From IMG/VR virus record IMGVR_UViG_2861079508_000001: 64,000 nucleotides of DNA, one strand, 5' to 3'. The notes beneath the pieces are model-generated. The model was given only the letters and a program-made list of their open reading frames with translations, had not been told where the DNA came from and did not search any database. This DNA is from a virus (lineage: Duplodnaviria > Heunggongvirae > Uroviricota > Caudoviricetes). Positions 12,379 to 54,009 of the stretch are shown here, in pieces (position 1 is the stretch's first letter; each line of letters opens with the position of its first letter). The translations under genes were made by a program, and so were the position numbers.

Positions 12379-12987
12379 TCAGTTATACAGATTTCTATTT
12401 ATTACCGGTACTCTGCCATTTACGCTAAAACTATGGCCGCCATTAAGTTGGTTTACGAATATCGAGCTAACAGTATTTCCATATGCCGCATATCCATAAA
12501 CCATTGTCATGGCTCCGCCCGGTACTGGAACAGCGAACACATTCGCATATGTTGGGATTATCGCTGGTGGGTAATCAAAAACATGCCCTCCAGAGCTGTT
12601 CCACTCCGTATTATTAAGAAAGGTAAATGAAAGTGGGATATTTGCCGTATTATAGATTTCCTCCCCTTGTGCATTGAAAAAACTCATGCCCCAAGTTTCT
12701 TTTTTGGCTATACCTTTCGAAAATACGTATATCGTGGCACTAGAGTCGCTACCCTGACCTCCGAAACTGTAAATCACCTGGTTGTTACGCACTATTCTGT
12801 TGGCTATTAATGAAACAGCTTTCGAATAGGCAACAAAAATCATCGGTGAACGATCTGGAGATATTTGGGTGTTAAACTCTGTCCCGCCGGACAAAGAAAC
12901 AACCTGCTTTCTCTGAAAAACGATAGGAGACAAAGAAGGAGACATCCAGACCTTCCCGTCAGATCGATATATCTTGCTTCCGTACAT
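12379..12987 (-). CDS. hypothetical tail-fibre-associated protein
   Basis: 202 aa; start overlaps stop of upstream gene (TAATG), suggesting co-translation with 12987..13241. Confidence 0.45.
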   Translation of the reverse strand: MYGSKIYRSDGKVWMSPSLSPIVFQRKQVVSLSGGTEFNTQISPDRSPMIFVAYSKAVSLIANRIVRNNQVIYSFGGQGSDSSATIYVFSKGIAKKETWGMSFFNAQGEEIYNTANIPLSFTFLNNTEWNSSGGHVFDYPPAIIPTYANVFAVPVPGGAMTMVYGYAAYGNTVSSIFVNQLNGGHSFSVNGRVPVINRNLYN

Positions 12988-13241
12988 TATTTTTGAAAAA
13001 CCAATATGTTTAAATTACCACTAGCTCCAGACCACGAAATGGTATTTCCAGAAACCGTAAGACTTGTGTATTTTCCATTGGTTACGTCCATTATGTAATA
13101 GTCGATTCCCAATCCCGCCTCAACCTCATATGTTCTACTTCCTGAACCAGAGGGAGTAAAATAATCGAGGTAATAAACAGGGGCCAACGCATCGACCATC
13201 TCCTGTCTTGATGGCGACCAAACCTGTGCACCATAGCTCAT
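12987..13241 (-). CDS. hypothetical tail-fibre-associated protein
   Basis: 84 aa; immediately downstream of long tail fibre gene. Confidence 0.4.
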   Translation of the reverse strand: MSYGAQVWSPSRQEMVDALAPVYYLDYFTPSGSGSRTYEVEAGLGIDYYIMDVTNGKYTSLTVSGNTISWSGASGNLNILVFQK

Positions 13242-13301: not shown

Positions 13302-16300
13302 TTATTCTTTAGGTGAATTTAACTTCGTTTCAAGCTCCTCAACCCTTTTGGTCAATTGCTGAATATGATGAATGAGTGGTACAACCAAACGCTCATACAT
13401 CACTCCTTCAGCGACCATACCATTTGAGGAAATATCTTCTGGAGAATCATTATTTGTTGGTTCACGCCAATGGACATATTGCGGGGCAATCTCACCAACC
13501 TCTTCAGCAATAAGGCCGTAATACCCCCAATCCTTTCGGTCACCTCGACAAATTGAACGATACCAAACAGGTCTTAATGACAAAAGTTCATCAGCATATC
13601 GATCTTGTAATGTTTCAATATCCTTTTTATAGCGCCTTGAAGAGGTTGAACGCCAAACTGTATTGATACCTGGGTTTGGATCAATGTACATATTGGCACC
13701 GCTAGTAGTTGTGCCAATATCCCATATAGCAAACCCTCCACTACCGCCTGATTTGACAACCAGTGTTTCAGCAATAATATCCAGGTTGCCACTATAGCCT
13801 GTCAGTGATGATCTGCTTGCATAGGAACTTAGAAGGTTTGTTACCTCTGTTTTCGTGTAAGCATTAAGGTTAGCCGCAGTCAAAGTTATATCGGCAGAGC
13901 CATCAAACGCCACACCAGCAATTTTCCTTGCTGTCTGCAATTTTGTGGCGGTTGCGGCATTACCAGTAGTGTTCTGATTACCAGTTGTATTCACACCAGG
14001 GATTGAATCCTTAGCGGTATATACCTGCGCCCACGCTGACCATGCCGCACCTGTGTTATCTCTTCGTGAGCGAATGAAAACTGGCGCATGTGCACCGCTC
14101 GTACCACTCCAGCCAATAAGCAACTCTCCCTCACCAGCAGCACTCGCACCTTTCATGTGCAATACGTTGCCATACATGGTCGGGTAGCTATTGTTGTACG
14201 CCTCGTACATTTGAATGCCAGCAGTGCCTTGAGTAGAGCCGCTTAACGCCGTAACTCGGCCACGAGATACCAATGTATTAATGTTGATATCGCCTGAGCC
14301 ATCAAACTTAACACCATTGATGTTTCTCGCTGTTTGCAACTTCGTAGCTGTTGAAGCATTACCGTTCAAACTACCATTTACGCCACCAGTCACATTTAGT
14401 CCATTACCAATTGATACAGCACCGCTGGTATTATTAATTGTAATAGGTCGCAAACCGTTCCATGAACCTAATGTGTCTCCTGATGCTGTTAGCATGAAAT
14501 ATGTGTTCGATCCATCATTACGGATAAAGAACCCAAAGCTACCGTAAGCAATGCGGAAACCATTTGCATATTTTGAAATGATCTCGCCAGAAGATGTCAA
14601 ACCTCCAGATAATGTACCACCGGTAAGAGGTAATGCACCGACATCAGAGGCTGTTGGTTTGTTTTTCGTGTTATATACTCTTCGCCATCCCGGAGAATAA
14701 TCTGTGCCATTAAATACATAGATAAACTCCGCATTAGTGAGAGCACCAGAGACACTCGTCGTTGTGGCCGTTGTTATACGGATCGTATAATTGTTTGAGC
14801 TACTACCGTTATTAAATACCTCTATAACAGCTCCTGCCAATGGAATAACGCCACAACCAGTTTCACTATTTGGTATGGTTGCACTATTGGCATAGGCCCA
14901 CGCACATCGAGCAATCCATGACTTTGTGTTAAATGCTCCATTATTTTGCAATAACGTCACTAACTGTGCTGTTGTTATTGCTCCGCCATTACTTCCTGTA
15001 GTTAACCAACCAGTAGGAGATGCCGGGCAACCTATATTTGCTGGCGACAAGGAAATATTTGCCGAGCCGTCAAACGACACCCCATTGATAGTACGCGCAG
15101 TCTGCAACTTCGTAGCAGTAGCCGCGTTGCCCGTTGTATTCTGATTACCAGTCGTATTAACACCTGGCAAATTAATATTCGCAGTACCATCAAAGCTCAC
15201 GCCGCCGATAGTTCTTGCCGTCTGAAGTTTTGTAGCAGTTGCAGCATTACCAGTGGTGTTCTGATTACCCGTAGTATTTACACCTGGAAGGTTGATATTT
15301 GCAGAACCGTCGAAACCAACTCCACCGATAGATCTTGCCGTCTGCAATTTCGTTGCTGTACTTGCATTACCATTTAATGTTCCGGTGATCCCACCAGTAA
15401 CAGACAACGGACCTGAAACTGTTCCTCCGGTTGTTGGCAGTGCTCCAATATCTAACGGCGTCGGTTTCTGATGTGTGCTATACATCGTATAAACAACACC
15501 ATCGGTAACGCTGGAAGGCTTACTAGCTGAATATGTTGGCGATGTATAAATAGAAACTGTCGCATTTGCAGTACAATCCCAATGGATATTTACACGAGTC
15601 GCATAATTGCCAATCTCAACGTAAATATCATATGTATCGCCGGATGTGTTGATCCAGGCGAAATTCGTTAATCCGACAGCTGTACGCTTCCACAAAGCAC
15701 CTGTAATCCCTTTGGGGTTTCCATTGCCTGCTCGTAGAACCAGTTCTGAAATGCCTGCCTGATGTGGGGAGCCGACGTTGTAACCAGCGCCACCAATCAA
15801 TGCGATGTAAACGATGGAACTCGCTTGTGGCATGGTAACCGTAGCCAGTTTGAACCACCCTGCCCCGCCAGAGAAAGACATCGTTACTGAATTTAAAGTA
15901 CCAATATCTTTCGGCGTTAATGTGATATCCGCAGTCAGTGCTTTACCGTTAACTTTTCGGTTAGATGGCACCCTGCTATTCGCATTGTCATTGGCTGCTT
16001 TAACTGCTTTTGGCGTTGCGGCCAGCGATTCACTGGTGCTGTCGACAGCACTGCTAAGTTTCACAACACCTTTAGTTGTAAGGCTTGCGTCTTCCATCGC
16101 AACTGCACCGGCAATCTCTTCAGCACGATCAGCAGCAGCTTCCGCACGGGTCGCAGCGGATTCAGCAGCAGTTTTGCTCTGAGATGCTGCCGTCGCACTG
16201 CCTGCCGCCTCTGTTGCTTTCGTGGATGCCGTCGTGGCGCTGCCCTTCGCTGCTGACGCCTGTCTGGTCGCCTCATCTTTTGAAGCAGACGCAGATGATG

Positions 16301-17459
16301 CCGATGACGCTGCCGAACTGGCGGACGATGCGGCTGCCGTTTTTGAGGATTCTGCACGGGTTTCCGACGCTTTCGCGTTCGTTTCGGATGTCTTCGCTGC
16401 GGAAGCAGACCTCGCTGCTGCGCTGGCCTGTTCAGTGGCTTCGCCAGCCTTCGTTGTGGCTGTTGAAGCAGACGATGCGGCACTTTCTGCCGATTTTCCG
16501 GCGGCTGTGGCACTGGCTGAGGCCTGCCCGGCACTTGTTGACGCGGCACTGGCAGACGACGCAGCCGCTGTTTTTGAGCCTGCTGCAGCCGAGGCGCTCT
16601 GTCCCGCTGCCGTTTCAGAAGACTTGGCGTTCGTCTCGGACGTTTTTGCCGCCTTCGCGGAATTTCCTGCCGCCGTTGCCGAGGAAGCTGCGCTACTGGC
16701 GCTCGAGGATGCGTTCGTTTCTGATGATTTCGCTGCCTCTTTTGAGGCCGCCGCATCCCGGGCTGAGGTGGCAGCTTCTGACGCTTTCGTGGTCGCGGTG
16801 GATGCAGAAGTGGCTGCTGATTGTTGTGACGCTGCGGCATTCGTTTCAGATTTTTTCGCAGCAGTTGCACTCGCACTTGCGGCACTTTGTGAGGATGCCG
16901 CAGCGGATGCACTTTGAGACGCTTGAGAGGCTTTTTCTCCAGCGGTATTGGCGCTTTCTGCTGCTGCGGCAGCACTGGCCGCCGCCTCACGAGCTTTGTC
17001 GCCAGCAGCATCAATCGCGTCAGTGTTATTTTTATACCACTCAACGTTTTCGTTGTGCTCGTTGACGATCTGCATTAGCGGCTTAACGGTTACTTCTGAA
17101 CCGTCTTCACGCTCGATTGTCACCTCATCCAGAGCAGTCAACCAACTGCGCATGGACTTGGAATCAGCCGACATACGCGACATTAGTGCTGTAAAGCGCG
17201 CGCTAAACTGTGTTAAGTCGCCTTCATAGGTCGTAATGATTCGGCACGGAACTTCAGACTGAGTTTCGCCGGTATAAGGTTCTGAGAGAACAATGTTCGT
17301 ATCACTGGTTACGCGCTTGATCTCATACAGCTTATTGTCGGGGCCAATGACGATCATCCCCGGCAACACACCATTAGCTGTTACGTTCCAGGCTGTCCCT
17401 GCCCCAACCAGAGTATTGCTGCCCTGTGTAAATGTGATAGTACCTTCCCTGTACCACAT
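13302..17459 (-). CDS. long tail fibre protein with C-terminal intramolecular chaperone (peptidase S74-type) domain
   Basis: 1385 aa; ~280-aa Ala/Ser/Thr-rich low-complexity region; tandem phage-fibre repeats (ASTATKLQTAR.IGGV.FDGSANINLPGVNTTGNQNTT x3-4); C-terminal YGLIAEEVGEIAPQYV-type chaperone motif. Confidence 0.75.
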   Translation of the reverse strand: MWYREGTITFTQGSNTLVGAGTAWNVTANGVLPGMIVIGPDNKLYEIKRVTSDTNIVLSEPYTGETQSEVPCRIITTYEGDLTQFSARFTALMSRMSADSKSMRSWLTALDEVTIEREDGSEVTVKPLMQIVNEHNENVEWYKNNTDAIDAAGDKAREAAASAAAAAESANTAGEKASQASQSASAAASSQSAASASATAAKKSETNAAASQQSAATSASTATTKASEAATSARDAAASKEAAKSSETNASSSASSAASSATAAGNSAKAAKTSETNAKSSETAAGQSASAAAGSKTAAASSASAASTSAGQASASATAAGKSAESAASSASTATTKAGEATEQASAAARSASAAKTSETNAKASETRAESSKTAAASSASSAASSASSASASKDEATRQASAAKGSATTASTKATEAAGSATAASQSKTAAESAATRAEAAADRAEEIAGAVAMEDASLTTKGVVKLSSAVDSTSESLAATPKAVKAANDNANSRVPSNRKVNGKALTADITLTPKDIGTLNSVTMSFSGGAGWFKLATVTMPQASSIVYIALIGGAGYNVGSPHQAGISELVLRAGNGNPKGITGALWKRTAVGLTNFAWINTSGDTYDIYVEIGNYATRVNIHWDCTANATVSIYTSPTYSASKPSSVTDGVVYTMYSTHQKPTPLDIGALPTTGGTVSGPLSVTGGITGTLNGNASTATKLQTARSIGGVGFDGSANINLPGVNTTGNQNTTGNAATATKLQTARTIGGVSFDGTANINLPGVNTTGNQNTTGNAATATKLQTARTINGVSFDGSANISLSPANIGCPASPTGWLTTGSNGGAITTAQLVTLLQNNGAFNTKSWIARCAWAYANSATIPNSETGCGVIPLAGAVIEVFNNGSSSNNYTIRITTATTTSVSGALTNAEFIYVFNGTDYSPGWRRVYNTKNKPTASDVGALPLTGGTLSGGLTSSGEIISKYANGFRIAYGSFGFFIRNDGSNTYFMLTASGDTLGSWNGLRPITINNTSGAVSIGNGLNVTGGVNGSLNGNASTATKLQTARNINGVKFDGSGDININTLVSRGRVTALSGSTQGTAGIQMYEAYNNSYPTMYGNVLHMKGASAAGEGELLIGWSGTSGAHAPVFIRSRRDNTGAAWSAWAQVYTAKDSIPGVNTTGNQNTTGNAATATKLQTARKIAGVAFDGSADITLTAANLNAYTKTEVTNLLSSYASRSSLTGYSGNLDIIAETLVVKSGGSGGFAIWDIGTTTSGANMYIDPNPGINTVWRSTSSRRYKKDIETLQDRYADELLSLRPVWYRSICRGDRKDWGYYGLIAEEVGEIAPQYVHWREPTNNDSPEDISSNGMVAEGVMYERLVVPLIHHIQQLTKRVEELETKLNSPKE
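15050..15420 (-). repeat. tandem ~110-bp coding repeats inside tail fibre gene
   Basis: Encode the repeated ATKLQTAR.IGGV.FDG fibre motif. Confidence 0.6.
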
Positions 17460-17501
17460 GTTGAATATGCTCCTTGATTTGGTGGGCTATCCTTGCCCAC
17501 C

Positions 17502-17529
17502 ATTAAGTATGTACCTACTTATTTTTACC
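17502..17529 (-). promoter_or_regulatory. motif 2 element
   Basis: ATTAAGTATGTACCTACTTATTTTTACC upstream of tail fibre gene. Confidence 0.45.
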
Positions 17530-17551
17530 GATATAAATATTTTTTTCTACA

Positions 17552-20500
17552 TTACAGAAGGCCAATTCTTACTCGTAGGACGTTGTTATCGTCATAAACG
17601 TCAATCCGCTGACCATTTATGACCAGTCGCCCATTACCCCCGCTATTACCGTTGATCTCAAGCGTTCCATTTTTGCCGAACCGCCATCCAGATCTACCGC
17701 TAACAAAATTGGTAGATTGCAGATCGCCTACTTTTGCATTGGTGATTGTGCCATCCTTGATATACGCACCATTCATATAGGCGATACTGTTTTCGATAAC
17801 AAATGGCGTGGTGATCTTCCCGTTAACAGAGTTGACCAAACCAAACCTGTCAGCCTGCACCAAAAACTGAGAAAGGCCAGTGGTGTCGATACCAAGCGCA
17901 ATACCAGCAACATACTTCTGCCCTCCGCTCGTTGAAGTTTCCATTTTCAACGTCCACGCGGTTGACACTTTTTTGTTGGTATCAGCAATAGCTGTTGCCT
18001 GCTGTTGAATTGTCGCGGTATTTCCATCCACCTCTGCTTTCAGAGTATCGATTCGCCCACTCAGAGCATTATCTGCCTGCGTTCTCGCTGTCGTTTCAGT
18101 TGTTACCGCCGCGGAAATGTTGGCTGCCGTTTGAGACTCTAAGTTTGTGATTTGAGTCGCCAATGCAGCATCTTGCTCTGTACGCGTTTTCGTTTCGGTT
18201 GCTACAGCCGCTTTAATATCCTCTTTGTATTGAGAGGTCAGCTTGGTGATCTGAGACGACAACGCCGAGTCAGCATCAGTTCGAGCCTGCGTTTCAACTG
18301 CAACGGCCGCACTAATATCTTTCGCTGTCTGTGCTTTTAAACTTGAAACCTCTTTTGTTAAAGCGGTATCACCATCAGCACGAGCCGTTGTTTCTCTGGC
18401 AAGAGATGCCTCGAGATCATTAGCTTTTGCTGTAAGAGACGAAATCTGAGTGGACAATGCACTATCGGCATCAGTCCTTGCCTTTGTCTCTACAGCAACC
18501 GCTGCGGCAATATCAGTTCCGGTTTGTGCTCGCAGGCTGTTAATTTCTCGTGAGAGCGCCTGGTCAGCACTTGCTCTGGCCTCCTGCTCCTGAGTGATGG
18601 CAGCGGATATATCACCGTCAACCTTTGACTGAAGCTGGTTTATTTGTTTGGCTAACGCAGAGTCCCCGCTTGCTCGGGCCTCCTGCTCACTACGTATTGC
18701 AGCAGAAATATCATCATCAACCTTTGCCTGAAGTTGGGTGATCTGGCTTGCCAGAGCCGAATCTTCCGTTGCTCGGGCTTCTTGCTCTTCCTTAATAGCT
18801 GCGACGATATCGTTGCTTACTTTCGACTCAAGCTGAGTGATCTGTGTCGTCAGAGCTTCATCGGCAGATGTGCGAGCCTCCTGCTCTGTACTAATCGCCG
18901 CGCTGATATCTCCTTCAAACTTAGATTGCAGCTGAGTGACACGCTTTGCCAACGCTTCATCGCCATCGGCACGAGCGGTGGACTCTTCCAGAATACTGGC
19001 CTTAATGTCTTCGCCAATTTCTACGCGAATTTCCTCAACCTTCGTGGCCATTGCAGACATATCATCAGCAAAGGTTTTCTGTGTTGTTGCGATCTTCGCG
19101 TTATTGACCATCTGCTTGTGCTGGTCTTCATCTTGACGAAGAGCTAGGTCAATATTTGTTTTGGCTAACGCCTCAATGTTCGTAGTCAGTTCTGCACTGG
19201 CACGATCGACCTCTGCAACCGTCTTTTTCATTTCTTCAACGGCAGCGGAGCTTTCCTCTACCGTTGACTGCAACACTTCCAGTTGTTTAGCGTTTGCAGC
19301 ATCGCCTTCAACACGAGCCTCGCTTTCCTTAGCAATAAGAGCCGCCGCTTCATCTCTTGCAGCCTTTATTGCCTCGACTGTATTAGCGAGAGCTTTATCG
19401 TGTTCAGATACGGTGTTTTCGATTTCAACAATTGCAGCATCAGTAGCATCAATTTTTTCAAACGCTTCATTGACCTTGTCGATCGTTGCCGAAACCTCAC
19501 CTTTAAGCTCGGTTTGTGCGTTCTCCAAAGCATCGCTACGCTCGTTGAATTTTATTTCAAAACCCGCGAGGTTATCGCTGAACTGCTTATCTAATTCAGC
19601 TATATCTTCCTTAACGTCGTTTACCGACCCCTCCAAAGATTCGACGCTCTGGTTGATATGCTCATTTAACTCGTCAACTGCTTCTTGAGAGGCTTTGCTG
19701 TTGATGTCCTCAAGCAGAGCCTGACCAAGCTCGGAAGATGTAATTTTGCCAGCCAGGAACGACAGTACATCGCGAGTTGTCGCCTCTGTACCCAAGTTTG
19801 AGTTCGGAGGGCTTAACATACCTCGCTTGTTCGATGCTCGAACCCAGTAATACCACGTTTCGCTATCCCCAAGACCAGCATGTGTAAAGGTGGTGCTTGC
19901 AGACTCTGCGATCAGTTTCGCCGTATCCAGATTGTTGGTCTGGGATGCGTAAACATTAATGTGATCAAGGTCTACCGAATCTGGATTAACCCAATTCAGT
20001 ATCACATTACGATAGTCTCCAACGGCCGTTAATGACGTTGGTGCATCCGGCGGTGTCATTGTGCCCAGCACCTGATAAACGGTACTGATAATTTCTGTTT
20101 TTTTACCGTTGAATGAAACCGCATACAGTTGGAAGTCGTAGCGTCCATTCTCCGCGACATTAACGATTTCGTATTGTTCTTCGGTTACACGCGCCGATTG
20201 CCAGTTCGATACATTGTTTTCATCAGAACGTCGCCAACTGATCCAATACTCTGGAGATTTCCCTTCCCATGTTGCAGTCAGTTTTACTGACAGGTTGCCC
20301 GGGCTTGAGAGGTAAGTCCCTTCAGTGATTTGCAAATTAGACGGCTTGGAGTAAGTCGGGTCCAATACCGTCGTATTCTGCGGGATAAGCGTTGCACCAT
20401 TGTCGATCGCCTCATATTTAGACGGATTGTTTTCAACAGCGGTGATGTCAAAGCTACCCGACGTTTCCCCCTGAGCGATGTTAACGATGCGAACGCGCAT

Positions 20501-22270
20501 AGGTTCGAGATCTGGTTCTGTAATTGTCCAGACACCGTTCAAAACAGGCGTTTCCGCTGACGACAGAGCTTTTGAAAACGTAACCTTTGTTATGTTTTCG
20601 CCAGTTTCAAGAACATCGCGCTCAACGATTTTGCCTTCCTGATTCAATATCCGAATAAAGCTGCCGCTTTTAGCTAACGACACAGGCGCATCGAGAGTGA
20701 TGCTGTTTTTGGTAAACTCCACAATTCGACCGGAGTTACGTTTACCTGCACGATATTTGTTCTGAATCAGAACGGTTTCACCGGGCATCAGAAATGAGGC
20801 GTCTAAGCCGGCAGTAAATGTAATTACATCCGACTCCATTCTGGCGGTATACAAAAGCCACAAACCAACTCGGTGAGCCTGGCCTCGGCTTGTACATCCA
20901 AATGCTACGACTTCTGTTTTACGCTCACCATAACGGCGCATTGCGTCCTGATCTTCAACGTACTCGATGTTTTGCTTATAACCGTCCTCCTTGTTGTTGT
21001 AGGTTACGAGCGCAACGGATGGGCGATCTTTACGCGCAGAACCTTTATAGGTAAACAGTCCATCTTTGACGTTGGAGTTGGTAAACATCATTACTGGATC
21101 TGATGGGCTATCCTGCATGATGTTAACCATGCCACCAGCCCAAAACACCATGCCGCGGAATGCACCGGCAATATCCTGAATTAATCGGTATGCGTCTTGT
21201 CGACTGGTGATCTGCGTATTGATTGCAAAGCGTTTCTCTTTACCCCCAAAGCCATCATCGACCTCTTCGTCACAATATCGACCAATCTGGTAGAGCTGGC
21301 CGAGGTCAATCATGGATTCCGACACAAATTGCCCAAGACCATACCGAGTATTGGTAAGCAAATCGTAGAGAATCCACGCAGGGTTTGAAGAAGACAACAG
21401 CTTAAAAGTACCGTCCCATACGCCGACATAAGTATTGGTGTATTCGTTGTCTCGGATTTTGATACCGCGCACCAAATACGAACGGGAAGGCATTGTGCTA
21501 CCAAACTGCTCTGAATTGACCTTCAAGCCAACAAGAGCAGAGTTAGGGTAGTTCATTGGCGTGTCGACAATCTCACCTATGGAATCAACCCATGTGTCGT
21601 TGTAGAGGTACTGGCTACTGTTATCATCTGTAAGACGAATCACCCTAACCTTGTATGCACGACCAGGCTTAGGTAGTTTCAGCTCATAGCTACGGTAATA
21701 CACGCCGGTTTTCTTTGCCGTTAGCGTGATATCAACGCTTTTCTCACCTTCTGCCACTACATCAGAAAATGTTGCGTCTCCGTTGGCGATCTGGAATTTG
21801 TACTTCACCGTAGTGCCATTTGTATCGCCAGAGCTTTTATCAACGCTACGTAAAGAGGGGAATTTCATGATGACACGAACGCGATCAGCTTCATCGTTAT
21901 CGATTGAAACCGTAACGTCGTGTGTTTTTTTAAGCTGAATATTTACGGACTTAGGCGTTTCGACAAAATCAAAACCAGCCATTGGCGTCTGGTCTTGTGA
22001 GCCGTCACGAAAATCCCATGTAATACCGCTGAAGTTGGAAGAGCCATCTTCATTCAAGATCGGTAAATCGTCGATGAAGATCGACTTTGCGCCATTTACC
22101 AGGCCACCGATAACCCCCTCGCCAAGAAGGTCGAGGATGGCTGCCATAGCACGAGAATTGACAGTATCATCAGCTTCAACCGGGGTACGGCTGGAGCTTT
22201 TACTTTTCTTGCCACCAGCACCGGCAATAAGAAGCGGTAATTTTTTCTTCTTGAACTGTTCCATGTCCAA
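17552..22270 (-). CDS. tail tip / host-specificity protein (lambda gpJ-like) with tandem coiled-coil repeat insertion
   Basis: 1572 aa; AFGCTSRGQAHRVGLWLL and KYVAGIALG...SQFLVQADRF match conserved gpJ blocks; ~12 tandem ~30-aa repeats (D.SAA...EQEARA..D.AL..QI..L..KV). Confidence 0.75.
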   Translation of the reverse strand: MDMEQFKKKKLPLLIAGAGGKKSKSSSRTPVEADDTVNSRAMAAILDLLGEGVIGGLVNGAKSIFIDDLPILNEDGSSNFSGITWDFRDGSQDQTPMAGFDFVETPKSVNIQLKKTHDVTVSIDNDEADRVRVIMKFPSLRSVDKSSGDTNGTTVKYKFQIANGDATFSDVVAEGEKSVDITLTAKKTGVYYRSYELKLPKPGRAYKVRVIRLTDDNSSQYLYNDTWVDSIGEIVDTPMNYPNSALVGLKVNSEQFGSTMPSRSYLVRGIKIRDNEYTNTYVGVWDGTFKLLSSSNPAWILYDLLTNTRYGLGQFVSESMIDLGQLYQIGRYCDEEVDDGFGGKEKRFAINTQITSRQDAYRLIQDIAGAFRGMVFWAGGMVNIMQDSPSDPVMMFTNSNVKDGLFTYKGSARKDRPSVALVTYNNKEDGYKQNIEYVEDQDAMRRYGERKTEVVAFGCTSRGQAHRVGLWLLYTARMESDVITFTAGLDASFLMPGETVLIQNKYRAGKRNSGRIVEFTKNSITLDAPVSLAKSGSFIRILNQEGKIVERDVLETGENITKVTFSKALSSAETPVLNGVWTITEPDLEPMRVRIVNIAQGETSGSFDITAVENNPSKYEAIDNGATLIPQNTTVLDPTYSKPSNLQITEGTYLSSPGNLSVKLTATWEGKSPEYWISWRRSDENNVSNWQSARVTEEQYEIVNVAENGRYDFQLYAVSFNGKKTEIISTVYQVLGTMTPPDAPTSLTAVGDYRNVILNWVNPDSVDLDHINVYASQTNNLDTAKLIAESASTTFTHAGLGDSETWYYWVRASNKRGMLSPPNSNLGTEATTRDVLSFLAGKITSSELGQALLEDINSKASQEAVDELNEHINQSVESLEGSVNDVKEDIAELDKQFSDNLAGFEIKFNERSDALENAQTELKGEVSATIDKVNEAFEKIDATDAAIVEIENTVSEHDKALANTVEAIKAARDEAAALIAKESEARVEGDAANAKQLEVLQSTVEESSAAVEEMKKTVAEVDRASAELTTNIEALAKTNIDLALRQDEDQHKQMVNNAKIATTQKTFADDMSAMATKVEEIRVEIGEDIKASILEESTARADGDEALAKRVTQLQSKFEGDISAAISTEQEARTSADEALTTQITQLESKVSNDIVAAIKEEQEARATEDSALASQITQLQAKVDDDISAAIRSEQEARASGDSALAKQINQLQSKVDGDISAAITQEQEARASADQALSREINSLRAQTGTDIAAAVAVETKARTDADSALSTQISSLTAKANDLEASLARETTARADGDTALTKEVSSLKAQTAKDISAAVAVETQARTDADSALSSQITKLTSQYKEDIKAAVATETKTRTEQDAALATQITNLESQTAANISAAVTTETTARTQADNALSGRIDTLKAEVDGNTATIQQQATAIADTNKKVSTAWTLKMETSTSGGQKYVAGIALGIDTTGLSQFLVQADRFGLVNSVNGKITTPFVIENSIAYMNGAYIKDGTITNAKVGDLQSTNFVSGRSGWRFGKNGTLEINGNSGGNGRLVINGQRIDVYDDNNVLRVRIGLL
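18000..18960 (-). repeat. tandem ~90-bp coding repeats inside gpJ-like gene
   Basis: Encode ~12 copies of a 30-aa coiled-coil unit. Confidence 0.6.
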
Positions 22271-53049: not shown

Positions 53050-53900
53050 GCTTCTTCGCTATACATGTTGTGTTTTATCTGTCTCAACCTCTCTATAGGC
53101 GTTAATGCTCACTCCTTCCAGAATGTTCTATACGGCAACTATTTCTGTTGGTGAATTGGGTGTGTTGTTCTCTCTGTCGGTGTATGTGGTTTCGTTCGTT
53201 TTGCGGTGGTTCTTCTATGGGGTGTTCTCGTCGTTTTGGTGATTGTTCTTCTCCGTGTATGGAGTAATGGCAGGTGGGCGATTCCTTTCGTTGTTGTGTT
53301 TGAGTTGTTTGTCTGGAGTGTGTGAAAGGCTTTTGCAGTTATTCGTGTATTGGGTAATGGCATTTCCCGTGATTGTTGTGTTTCGTGTCTTTTGGGATTG
53401 AGAGAAACCTTGCGGTTACAGGCTTCGTTGGGGTTTCAGTGATTCTGGTGTTCTTCGCTGTTTGGGGAATGGCGTGTCGTGGGTATCGCGCGTATGAATG
53501 TTTTCGGATTGCCTGTGAAAGTTAGGTTGGTTGTCCGGTAGCCTGGGGAGAAGAGGTGGGTCTTTTCGGTAGCCTGCCATAAAGAGGTTGGTTGTTTTTG
53601 GAAATGGCATTTGTGTTATTTAGTTGTTTTGTTATGCCTGAAAATAAGTTGTTTATATGGTTGTGTAACGCAACGGGAGCGATTTTGAGCGTGTGTTTTT
53701 GTTGGTAGTGTGTTGGGTCGTCTGTGGTGAAAATTGGACGCTGTGGCGCTGTCTGCTGCGTAGAGTTACGGGTATAAGCAGTGATGTGTGAAAACGTCAA
53801 TTTTTTAGACCAAATCGGGTGAAAGCGTTGATGTTTCGTTGATCTGTTATTCAGTTGTTTTCTTGATTGTATAAACAACTATAACTTATTGATATTTAAG
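53050..53900 (+). repeat. GT-skewed non-coding region with periodic GGnTAATGGCA-type repeats
   Basis: Plus strand almost exclusively G/T-rich; recurring TGGAGTAATGGCAGG, TTGGGTAATGGCATTT, GGGGAATGGCGTG, TGGAAATGGCATTTG at ~85-130-bp spacing; also CGGTAGCCTGGGGAGAAGAGGTGGGT duplicated and related to 50400-50430. Confidence 0.5.
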
Positions 53901-54009
53901 GATGTGATTGCGGGTATGGAAGAAGAGTAGTGGCGATCAACGGATTCTTATAGAAAAGAATCAAATTGTGACCGCCATTATCAACTGATTGATTTGTTTA
54001 CTTGTGTAG

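Follow-up and report, generated by a model that had tools for sequence, protein, structure and literature searches.

The window analysed here is a stretch of 64,000 nucleotides (nt) from a virus of the Caudoviricetes, IMG/VR record IMGVR_UViG_2861079508_000001, which we assign to an SSU5-like phage-plasmid. Its positions 13,302 to 22,270 hold two adjacent genes with extensive tandem repeats, one coding for a central fibre and tail tip protein related to gpJ of phage lambda (J hereafter) and the other for a side tail fibre. The overall explanation that we favour, and consider probable, is that these repeats are structural periods of trimeric fibre shafts in the central and in the side fibre; that they are structural units of fibre shafts at all is close to certain, and the trimeric state of the two shafts is presumed. 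The shaft of J includes an array of ten tandem units of 33 amino acids (aa). Because each of these units carries one reverse and one forward copy of the motif SxSxxMxxLxS, the array most likely belongs to the metastable coiled coil of the central fibres of F-type pyocins and siphophages.

The 33-residue array of protein J

Units were counted by protein autocorrelation and with a hidden Markov model (HMM) built from the units of this window. The autocorrelation of J peaks at 33, 66, and 99 aa, and the array comprises ten units, one of them 32 aa long (Table 1); the initial annotation, made from the letters alone, had wrongly given about 12 tandem units of 30 aa. It had correctly placed the array before the conserved KYVAGIALG block, and the gap between the two is 35 aa. 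The consensus of the units is DIsAAIxxExxARxxaDxALxxQIxxLxakvxx, in which A4, E9, R13, D17, A19, L20, and L27 are invariant in all ten. Since the units match the HMM with independent E-values of 1e-16 to 1e-21 and the same arrays are found in more than 160 independent assemblies, chance can be excluded as the origin of the repeats. The HMM also detected a single isolated degenerate unit at aa 977-1005. Mean pairwise identity between the units is 48% in protein and ranges from 40 to 66% in DNA, the longest exact match between units being 12 nt; because the units are so diverged, Tandem Repeats Finder sees only 2.2 copies per array. At E-values of up to 10, Pfam had no family for the 33-aa unit, nor for the Ala/Ser tract or the 40-aa repeat of the side fibre described below. 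In a wider set of proteins, the unit was found in 1829 cluster representatives at E ≤ 1e-3; it also occurs in proteins with a T7-type tail-fibre N-terminus (Pfam). The notion that ten units might be exceptional was rejected, as other proteins reach 18 units in tandem and 25 units in total.

The array lies within an insertion relative to lambda J. Pfam recognizes FNIII-A_GpJ and Phage-tail_3 (E = 1e-29 and 7e-34), fn3, and Phage_Tail_Tip in the protein. In a phmmer comparison with 8iyk_J, aa 22-858 aligned with residues 3-837 of lambda gpJ (E = 1e-121), and aa 1415-1544 align with residues 839-971, so that aa 859-1414 form a 556-aa insertion at a single point of lambda J, as the earlier description of the coiled-coil units as "inserted" had implied. 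The hub and the tail-tip fibre domain are thus collinear with those of lambda gpJ (8iyk, 8xcj, 8xci), but the 556 aa of helix in J have no counterpart in lambda, in which they would fall between residues 837 and 839. In the C-terminal domain, the Phage_Tail_Tip (DUF1983) match covers aa 1420-1554 (Pfam E = 1e-41) and KYVAGIALG stands at aa 1452. When the predicted model of J was compared with the PDB by Foldseek, it matched at this C-terminal domain only, the hits being the lambda gpJ central fibre structures 8xcj and 8xci (probability 1.00). J scored 507 bits with the NCBIfam lambda_TipJ "exception" model, whose cut-off is 1950, and neither J nor the side fibre protein was named above the NCBIfam model cut-offs; we classify J as a member of the TipJ family, but not as a near-copy of lambda J. 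Its orthologues, gp20 of Salmonella phage SSU5 and the other SSU5-like J proteins, share the gene order, the unit, and the flanks.

The number of units differs between relatives. Ten tandem units are found in the window, in Escherichia phage Cyrano, and in both records of phage CMS-2020a, nine in PhiR41_1, five in SSU5, and none in the Klebsiella relatives; 64 IMG/VR loci have between 2 and 10 (ten in 27 loci, five in 15). The J protein of SSU5 is exactly 165 aa, or five units, shorter than that of the window, and PhiR41_1, compared with CMS-2020a SCU-175, lacks exactly one unit through a clean 99-nt deletion at an 11-nt microhomology, the flanks being otherwise identical. The plasmid pCUPF07B has 11 units, with the duplication junction in a 12-nt match between units 4 and 5, and three E. 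coli plasmids have nine, with the deletion junction in CAAAGGTTGA, which is common to units 3 and 4. Junction-specific searches for these two variants among the 166 E. coli genomes with this allele returned three carriers of the nine-unit form and one of the 11-unit form (4/166). All recent gains and losses fall in units 3-5, which are the neighbours that resemble each other most. Changes of copy number in J come in whole units and are rare, the rarity being explained by the limited DNA identity between units, and slippage or unequal exchange at microhomologies of 10-12 nt would account for the steps of 99 nt. The earlier proposal that repeat number varies by recombination holds for the variation itself, between SSU5-like elements as well as between near-identical plasmids with 9, 10, or 11 units, but such changes are infrequent. 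The comparison of copy number among related elements that had been recommended along with it gave 2-10 units for J, 7-aa steps for the Ala/Ser tract of the side fibre, and 1-4 copies for its 40-aa repeats.

In Klebsiella phages GArcari-2022b and vB_Kpn_1825-KPC53, the J homologue is a frame of 3543 aa without the 33-aa array, in which the hub is kept (70% identity, aa 1-1114) and is followed by a very long, different C-terminal part.

That the arrays were collapsed or expanded during assembly, the objection which the initial annotation had itself raised, has a negligible probability. Of the 166 complete E. coli genomes that carry the 1301-nt array region, 164 have it at 96-100% identity, the array is also found in Cyrano and CMS-2020a, and at least 27 IMG/VR contigs have ten units. 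Furthermore, the units differ enough (no more than 12 identical nt) that assemblers have no reason to collapse them. The arrays hold, being identical in many independent assemblies.

Predicted structure and a candidate fold switch in the J shaft

Prediction of the structure of the repeat region, another of the recommended checks, consisted of two single-chain AlphaFold2 (AF2) runs on J, covering aa 1055-1572 (110 sequences) and aa 1253-1572 (83 sequences). AF2 predicts a continuous helix through the array (aa 1056-1404; predicted local distance difference test, pLDDT, 70-89), followed by beta strands from aa 1406-1408 onwards; at the transition from helix to strand, in unit 10, the confidence drops to about 42. 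Of the region of 229 aa that precedes the array (aa 859-1087), only aa 1056-1087 were modelled, and these are predicted to be helical. The hydrophobicity spectrum of the array has two peaks, at 2.06 and 3.65 residues, and its nine core positions per 33 residues correspond to 3.67 residues per turn; the helix upstream of the array (aa 850-1087) has a single peak at 3.55 residues.

The end of the shaft together with the C-terminal domain can be aligned to the F2-pyocin tail fibre (25vf_A, E = 4e-25), and the region also aligns with three other solved J-like fibres. Searched against the whole PDB, the profile of the unit matched only 9l9p, 25vf (F2 pyocin residues 1033-1062), and 9ze4. In the F2 pyocin, whose PDB entries are 25vf, 25vj, and 26ci, the shaft region of the fibre is three-stranded and alpha-helical and the side fibres attach there (PMC13455828). 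In the F7 pyocin, a coiled coil of 163 residues turns into a triangular beta-prism on contact with the cell (PMC12874032; He et al. 2026 preprint), a switch that opens the tip and ejects the tape measure protein, and mutations at small residues buried in the prism but not in the coiled coil abolish killing and spare assembly (PMC12874032). The strands of the F7 prism carry the motif SxSxxMxxLxS, oriented according to the strand, often with an Arg at four residues to either side of the acidic M position (PMC12874032).

We scanned J for this motif using the residue classes of that work (PMC12874032) and 2000 composition-preserving shuffles. All ten units contain the reverse motif, AAIxxEQEARA, at positions 4-14, in which E9 and R13 are separated by four residues, and the forward motif, ALxxQIxxLxA, at positions 19-29; an additional forward match is present in five of them. 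The array contains 26 matches, against 2.4 ± 1.5 per direction in the shuffles, and 20 of the 20 expected strand positions are occupied. In a table of 2076 units from 258 proteins, small residues make up 94-100% of each of the six S positions, a conservation inflated by the fact that the table was gathered with the HMM built from the units of this window. These positions sit on the face of the helix opposite the hydrophobic core, a pattern that one would expect of a dual-fold module but not of a plain coiled coil.

In the AF2 models, the forward motif of unit 10 (18053-18130, aa 1381-1406; ALSGRIDTLKA) is partly strand, and that of the other modelled units (6-9 in one run) is helix.

With the F-type pyocin central fibre, J shares a lambda-like hub with a fibronectin type III domain, a long helical shaft (three-stranded in the pyocin and presumably so in J), and a beta-prism C-terminal domain, as well as the SxSxxMxxLxS motif in alternating orientation with its acidic M and the Arg four residues away. 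The criterion of homology in the F7 work is a BLAST e-value below 1e-6 with F7 residues 816 to the end (PMC12874032); the comparison made here is with the F2-pyocin tail fibre, at the E-value given above. The J array differs from the switching segment of F7, which has 163 residues, in being an array of 10 × 33 aa behind a helix of 229 aa, and with its 330 aa it is twice as long. Host and particle differ as well, the window belonging to a phage-plasmid of E. coli with a DNA-containing virion.

By analogy with F7, contact with the receptor would cause the array to refold, from the C-terminal beta-prism as a seed, into a beta-prism in which each 33-aa unit would form one beta-hairpin. If each residue of helix is taken to span about 0.15 nm and each strand of sheet about 0.48 nm, such refolding would reduce the length of the array from about 49 nm to only about 10 nm (inferred lengths); the tail tip would open and the tape measure protein would be released. 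Whether the array really switches its fold we judge, from these analogies, to be evenly balanced. Several points weigh against reading it as a metastable coiled coil. Both AF2 monomer runs gave the helical state only and no beta-prism was seen in them; the fold switch is known from one pyocin preprint, and lambda and T5 do without it (PMC12874032). Where J significantly resembles the pyocin shaft in sequence, it does so mostly in the last unit and the C-terminal domain, and the motif classes are permissive in a sequence rich in Ala, Ser, and Thr, although the shuffles control for composition. To this must be added the inflated conservation in the unit table, and the fact that the 2.06-residue peak is a harmonic of the 33-aa period and merely suggestive. 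Finally, any "tuning" by unit number would be slow, since copy-number variants are rare within the lineage (4/166).

Two other readings of the array have to be weighed against these observations. It may be a passive, rigid coiled-coil spacer that never refolds, the number of units setting the reach of the tip, for example through O-antigen or capsule; we regard this as possible, if doubtful. The confident continuous helix predicted by AF2, the tolerance of 2 to 18 tandem copies across the family, and the fact that lambda functions without any such segment are all in keeping with a spacer. A plain coiled coil, however, needs neither near-invariant small residues on its solvent-exposed face nor the E9-R13 and D17 pattern in both orientations in each unit, and the homologous pyocin shafts refold (PMC12874032). 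Alternatively, the units may be repeated or adjustable docking sites for the side fibre on the shaft of the central fibre. The side fibres of F-type pyocins attach to the shaft of the central fibre (PMC12874032; PMC13455828), and the side fibre gene of the window lies directly downstream of J, its N-terminal 145 aa being kept where the rest is swapped. But the docking site of the F2 pyocin is a single kink at one glycine, and no repeated unit (PMC13455828), and lambda Stf, which shares the coiled coil of this side fibre, binds the tail tube via a collar (PMC12617516). We consider docking by the units improbable; docking within aa 859-1087 of J would be compatible with repeats that are periods of the fibre shafts.

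The side tail fibre

In the side fibre, the repeats of the proximal shaft are heptads. The initial annotation had described an Ala/Ser/Thr-rich tract of about 280 aa; the tract is there, but it measures about 310 aa and consists of strict heptads rather than mere low complexity. Its composition is 37% Ala, 23% Ser, and 11% Thr (71% together), its GC content is 0.60 and 0.79 at second codon positions, and GCN codons dominate. The autocorrelation of the tract peaks solely at multiples of 7 aa, repeats in the DNA are spaced by multiples of 21 nt, and the hydrophobicity spectrum has one peak, at 3.50 residues. The register is unbroken over about 44 heptads; 43 of 44 have Ala at one position, and 33 of 44 have Ser at another. 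Among the homologous tracts of relatives, insertions and deletions are mostly multiples of 7 aa (7, 14, 21, 35, 105, 175, and 210 aa) in pairwise alignments, in which gap placement is ambiguous for such a sequence; regular-expression anchors returned only three lengths for the tract, 112, 217, and 322 aa, in steps of 105 aa. The length of the tract would accordingly change in whole heptads.

The tract is 80% identical in DNA to the stf gene of lambda (orf-401; J02459, 20180-20692) and 87-95% identical to other lambdoid stf genes, the highest value being that of phi458. In Ur-lambda, residues 102-393 of gpStf form the proximal coiled coil of the trimeric side fibre, modelled in agreement with the density from cryo-electron tomography (PMC12617516). 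We presume, from this homology and the heptads, that the tract is the trimeric coiled-coil proximal shaft of the side fibre, with a core of Ala and Ser. A disordered, mucin-like low-complexity linker could likewise be 71% Ala, Ser, and Thr and lack a Pfam family, but it would hardly keep a heptad register over about 44 heptads with one Ala and one Ser position, nor vary in length mostly by multiples of 7 aa, and the homologous segment of lambda Stf is modelled as a coiled coil that fits the tomographic density (PMC12617516); we hold such a linker to be very improbable.

The lambdoid DNA matches stop about 30 aa into the tract, short of aa 1-145 of the fibre. To judge by these matches, the N-terminal domain is unrelated to the StfN collar of lambda, and the coiled coil is the only module that the two fibres share. 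The N-terminal 145 aa are 77-100% identical in most IMG/VR loci, even where the downstream sequence differs, and about 51% and 24% identical in six more distant loci and in one, respectively. They had no match in Pfam or the PDB and presumably are the domain that attaches the fibre to the virion.

As the initial annotation had stated, the GC-rich Ala tract generates long spurious open reading frames (ORFs) on both strands; there are three, of 231 to 327 aa (Table 1), with translations rich in R/P/Q/L or in A/D/V/F. The lambda record annotates orf206b over the homologous tract, and several phage records have "hypothetical protein (x2)" there. On the plus strand, two antisense ORFs over the coiled coil of J (18734-19147 and 19161-19688; 137 and 175 aa, low-complexity translations) are likely to be just as spurious. 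In plasmid pSJC33-2 (NZ_CP080257.1; 7403-11122 of the extracted locus), whose J array is 100% identical to that of the window, PGAP calls the orthologue of the side fibre a pseudogene "missing N-terminus", which may reflect a true frameshift or else a fault of sequencing or annotation within the Ala/Ser tract.

Beyond the coiled coil, the motif GNA(A/S)TATKLQTAR..GV.FDGS occurs five times. The "3-4 tandem fibre repeats" reported initially correspond to three tandem copies, the remaining two being dispersed; relatives have 1-4 tandem 40-aa repeats. Residues 790-1033 matched sequences of the S fibres of Mu and P1 and of T4 gp34 in the PDB (8ju3, 5yvq, 4uxe, 5nxh). What is common to these fibres and the present one is this middle module alone, with its Gp34_trimer domain, one cassette of a mosaic protein. 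The layout of the side fibre would hence run from the attachment domain through the coiled coil to a beta shaft, made of the 40-aa repeats and the gp34-type domain, and on to the distal part.

The C-terminus was described from the outset as a self-cleaving chaperone, and a Peptidase_S74 domain (PF13884) was indeed recognized above its cut-off at aa 1273-1329 (27.2 bits, cut-off 22), with the expected Ser-Lys spacing; the cleavage itself is a prediction. The residues S1273-S-R-R-Y-K1278 stand at position 1 of the profile, with a Ser followed by a Lys five residues on, and TS|SRRYKKDI of the fibre lines up with TS|DARLKNDV of the L-shaped fibre pb1 of T5. In BLASTP the alignment of the fibre C-terminus with T5 pb1 was not significant, so the assignment rests on Pfam, and what links the fibre to the S74 chaperones of the K1F endosialidase and T5 pb1 is the Pfam match and the Ser-x4-Lys spacing. 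We take Ser1273 to be the nucleophile and Lys1278 the base, roles assigned from endoNF and T5 pb1. The chaperone would fold the fibre trimer and then be cut off before Ser1273 by the predicted autocleavage. This is a further difference from lambda Stf, which shares the heptad tract (gpStf 102-393) but needs a separate Tfa.

The distal part varies among relatives. In IMG/VR loci in which the C-terminal 256 aa of J are 100% identical, at least six different fibre C-termini are found, which indicates that the distal cassette is often exchanged with fibre genes of lambdoid, P1/Mu-like, and T4-like phages. Fibre endings seen behind the same J allele and the same fibre N-terminus include ...EELETKLNSPKE, ...LKFAGTVGATSN, ...KNIAFNYIVRLA, and ...YINGTWYNVAQV. 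As it is swapped among loci with an identical J C-terminus, the distal end of the side fibre is more likely than the J units to be the determinant of host range.

Table 1. Features of the two fibre genes and overlapping reading frames in the window (nt positions of the whole stretch; aa positions of the respective protein; TRF, Tandem Repeats Finder)
Feature	Position	Strand	Basis or length
gpJ-like central fibre / tail tip protein gene	17552..22270	minus	single ORF, 1572 aa; Pfam; PDB sequence hits (lambda gpJ, tail fibre of F2 pyocin)
J, hub part, aa 1-741	20048..22270	minus	collinear with lambda gpJ 3-~740; Pfam and phmmer
J, fibronectin type III domain, aa 742-821	19808..20047	minus	Pfam fn3, 25.1 bits (cut-off 25)
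J, helical region without 33-aa period, aa 859-1087	19010..19696	minus	absent from lambda J; first part of insertion
J, array of 10 tandem 33-aa units, aa 1088-1416	18023..19009	minus	autocorrelation, unit HMM, AF2 helix
J, C-terminal beta-prism / tail-tip fibre domain, aa 1417-1572	17555..18022	minus	Pfam Phage_Tail_Tip; predicted beta; Foldseek
Side tail fibre gene	13302..17459	minus	single ORF, 1385 aa; PHROG tail fibre families
Fibre, N-terminal domain, aa 1-145	17025..17459	minus	conserved among SSU5-like elements
Fibre, Ala/Ser/Thr heptad tract, aa 146-455	16095..17024	minus	7-aa / 21-nt periodicity; lambda stf homology
Fibre, three tandem 40-aa (120-nt) repeats, aa ~696-815	15015..15374	minus	TRF period 120, 76% matches; direct-repeat family D1
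Fibre, Gp34_trimer-type domain, aa 907-1008	14436..14741	minus	Pfam PF21446, E 6e-29
Fibre, fourth repeat core, dispersed, aa ~1033-1058	14287..14363	minus	motif position, direct repeats
Fibre, fifth repeat core, dispersed, aa ~1166-1191	13888..13964	minus	motif position, direct repeats
Fibre, C-terminal intramolecular chaperone, aa 1273-1385	13305..13643	minus	Peptidase_S74
Overlapping ORF judged spurious	16061-17044	minus, other frame	327 aa
Overlapping ORF judged spurious	16085-17065	plus	326 aa
Overlapping ORF judged spurious	16222-16917	plus	231 aa

The SSU5-like element and the significance of the array

At the DNA level, Escherichia phage Cyrano and phage CMS-2020a match the two-gene region of 8.97 kb with 95% identity, and SSU5 is a more distant relative in the same comparison. 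J, whose gene starts at a TTG with an ATG two codons in, is 97% identical in aa sequence to J of Cyrano, and the side fibre is 91% identical to the Cyrano "tail fiber protein" over aa 1-1219. Their counterparts in Cyrano carry the annotations "tail host specificity protein J" and "tail fiber protein"; there they follow the tape measure, M, L, K, and I genes and precede those for a holin and an endolysin. The order M-L-K-I-J-fibre is common to Cyrano, SSU5, PhiR41_1, and the E. coli plasmid pSJC33-2, and the ORFs upstream of J in the window match the same tail-tip block from tape measure to J. The J array region is present in 166 of 5426 complete E. coli genomes, in all of them on plasmids, which range from 76 to 218 kb, most being about 100-116 kb. 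The original identification of the genes, as those of a tail fibre with a self-cleaving C-terminal chaperone and of a gpJ-like protein, agrees with Pfam, PHROG, and the Cyrano annotation. The phage-plasmid is a common one in E. coli, and both genes are mosaic fibre genes of an ordinary kind.

Between the side fibre gene and the holin/endolysin genes, positions 12379-13241 (minus strand) hold two small genes, one of 84 aa (phrog_557, "outer membrane protein") and one of 202 aa (phrog_425, membrane-associated moron). The same slot in SSU5 and pSJC33-2 holds the exclusion lipoprotein gene cor, and it looks like a slot for superinfection exclusion or moron genes. Farther away, about 0.9 kb at 53050-53950 is strongly G/T-rich on the plus strand (GC skew +0.31, AT skew −0.34), has no convincing ORF, and contains degenerate direct repeats, including GTAATGGCA units at a spacing of 82-90 nt; this could be an origin/iteron region or a non-coding RNA region of the phage-plasmid. 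A tRNA scan found no tRNA genes in the 64-kb window.

By themselves, the repeats are the standard architecture of fibres in a well-sampled element and, as such, ordinary. What is new relative to the F-pyocin papers (PMC12874032 and the available passages of PMC13455828) is the quantised organisation of the array and its polymorphism: the word "repeat" occurs 0 times in the F7 paper (PMC12874032), those passages of the F2 paper describe no repeat unit (PMC13455828), and our literature search found no work on tandem repeats in protein J or on phage Cyrano. For annotation, it matters that the long ORFs which overlap the Ala/Ser tract are artefacts and nevertheless enter public records.

Nature provides a series of 2-10 units in SSU5-like phage-plasmids and of up to 18 tandem units elsewhere, with near-isogenic forms of 9, 10, and 11 units in E. 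coli. Tentatively, and with less than even confidence, the 33-aa unit could be regarded as the quantum of a fold-switching machine, about 4.9 nm of helix becoming one beta-hairpin, in an allelic series that moves in steps of 99 nt and in which the number of units would set reach, stroke, and energy. The source of the energy with which non-contractile tails breach the envelope has only recently received a candidate answer, the conversion of a coiled coil into a beta-prism, and the window presents a candidate module of this kind as a countable unit, together with a simple rule, based on sequence, by which other phages can be searched for such modules. As natural versions with 5, 9, 10, and 11 units exist in a culturable lineage (Cyrano, SSU5, PhiR41_1), the dependence on length is directly testable. 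If the fold switch is true, the array would store energy and set the stroke, rather than act as a passive spacer of a given length.

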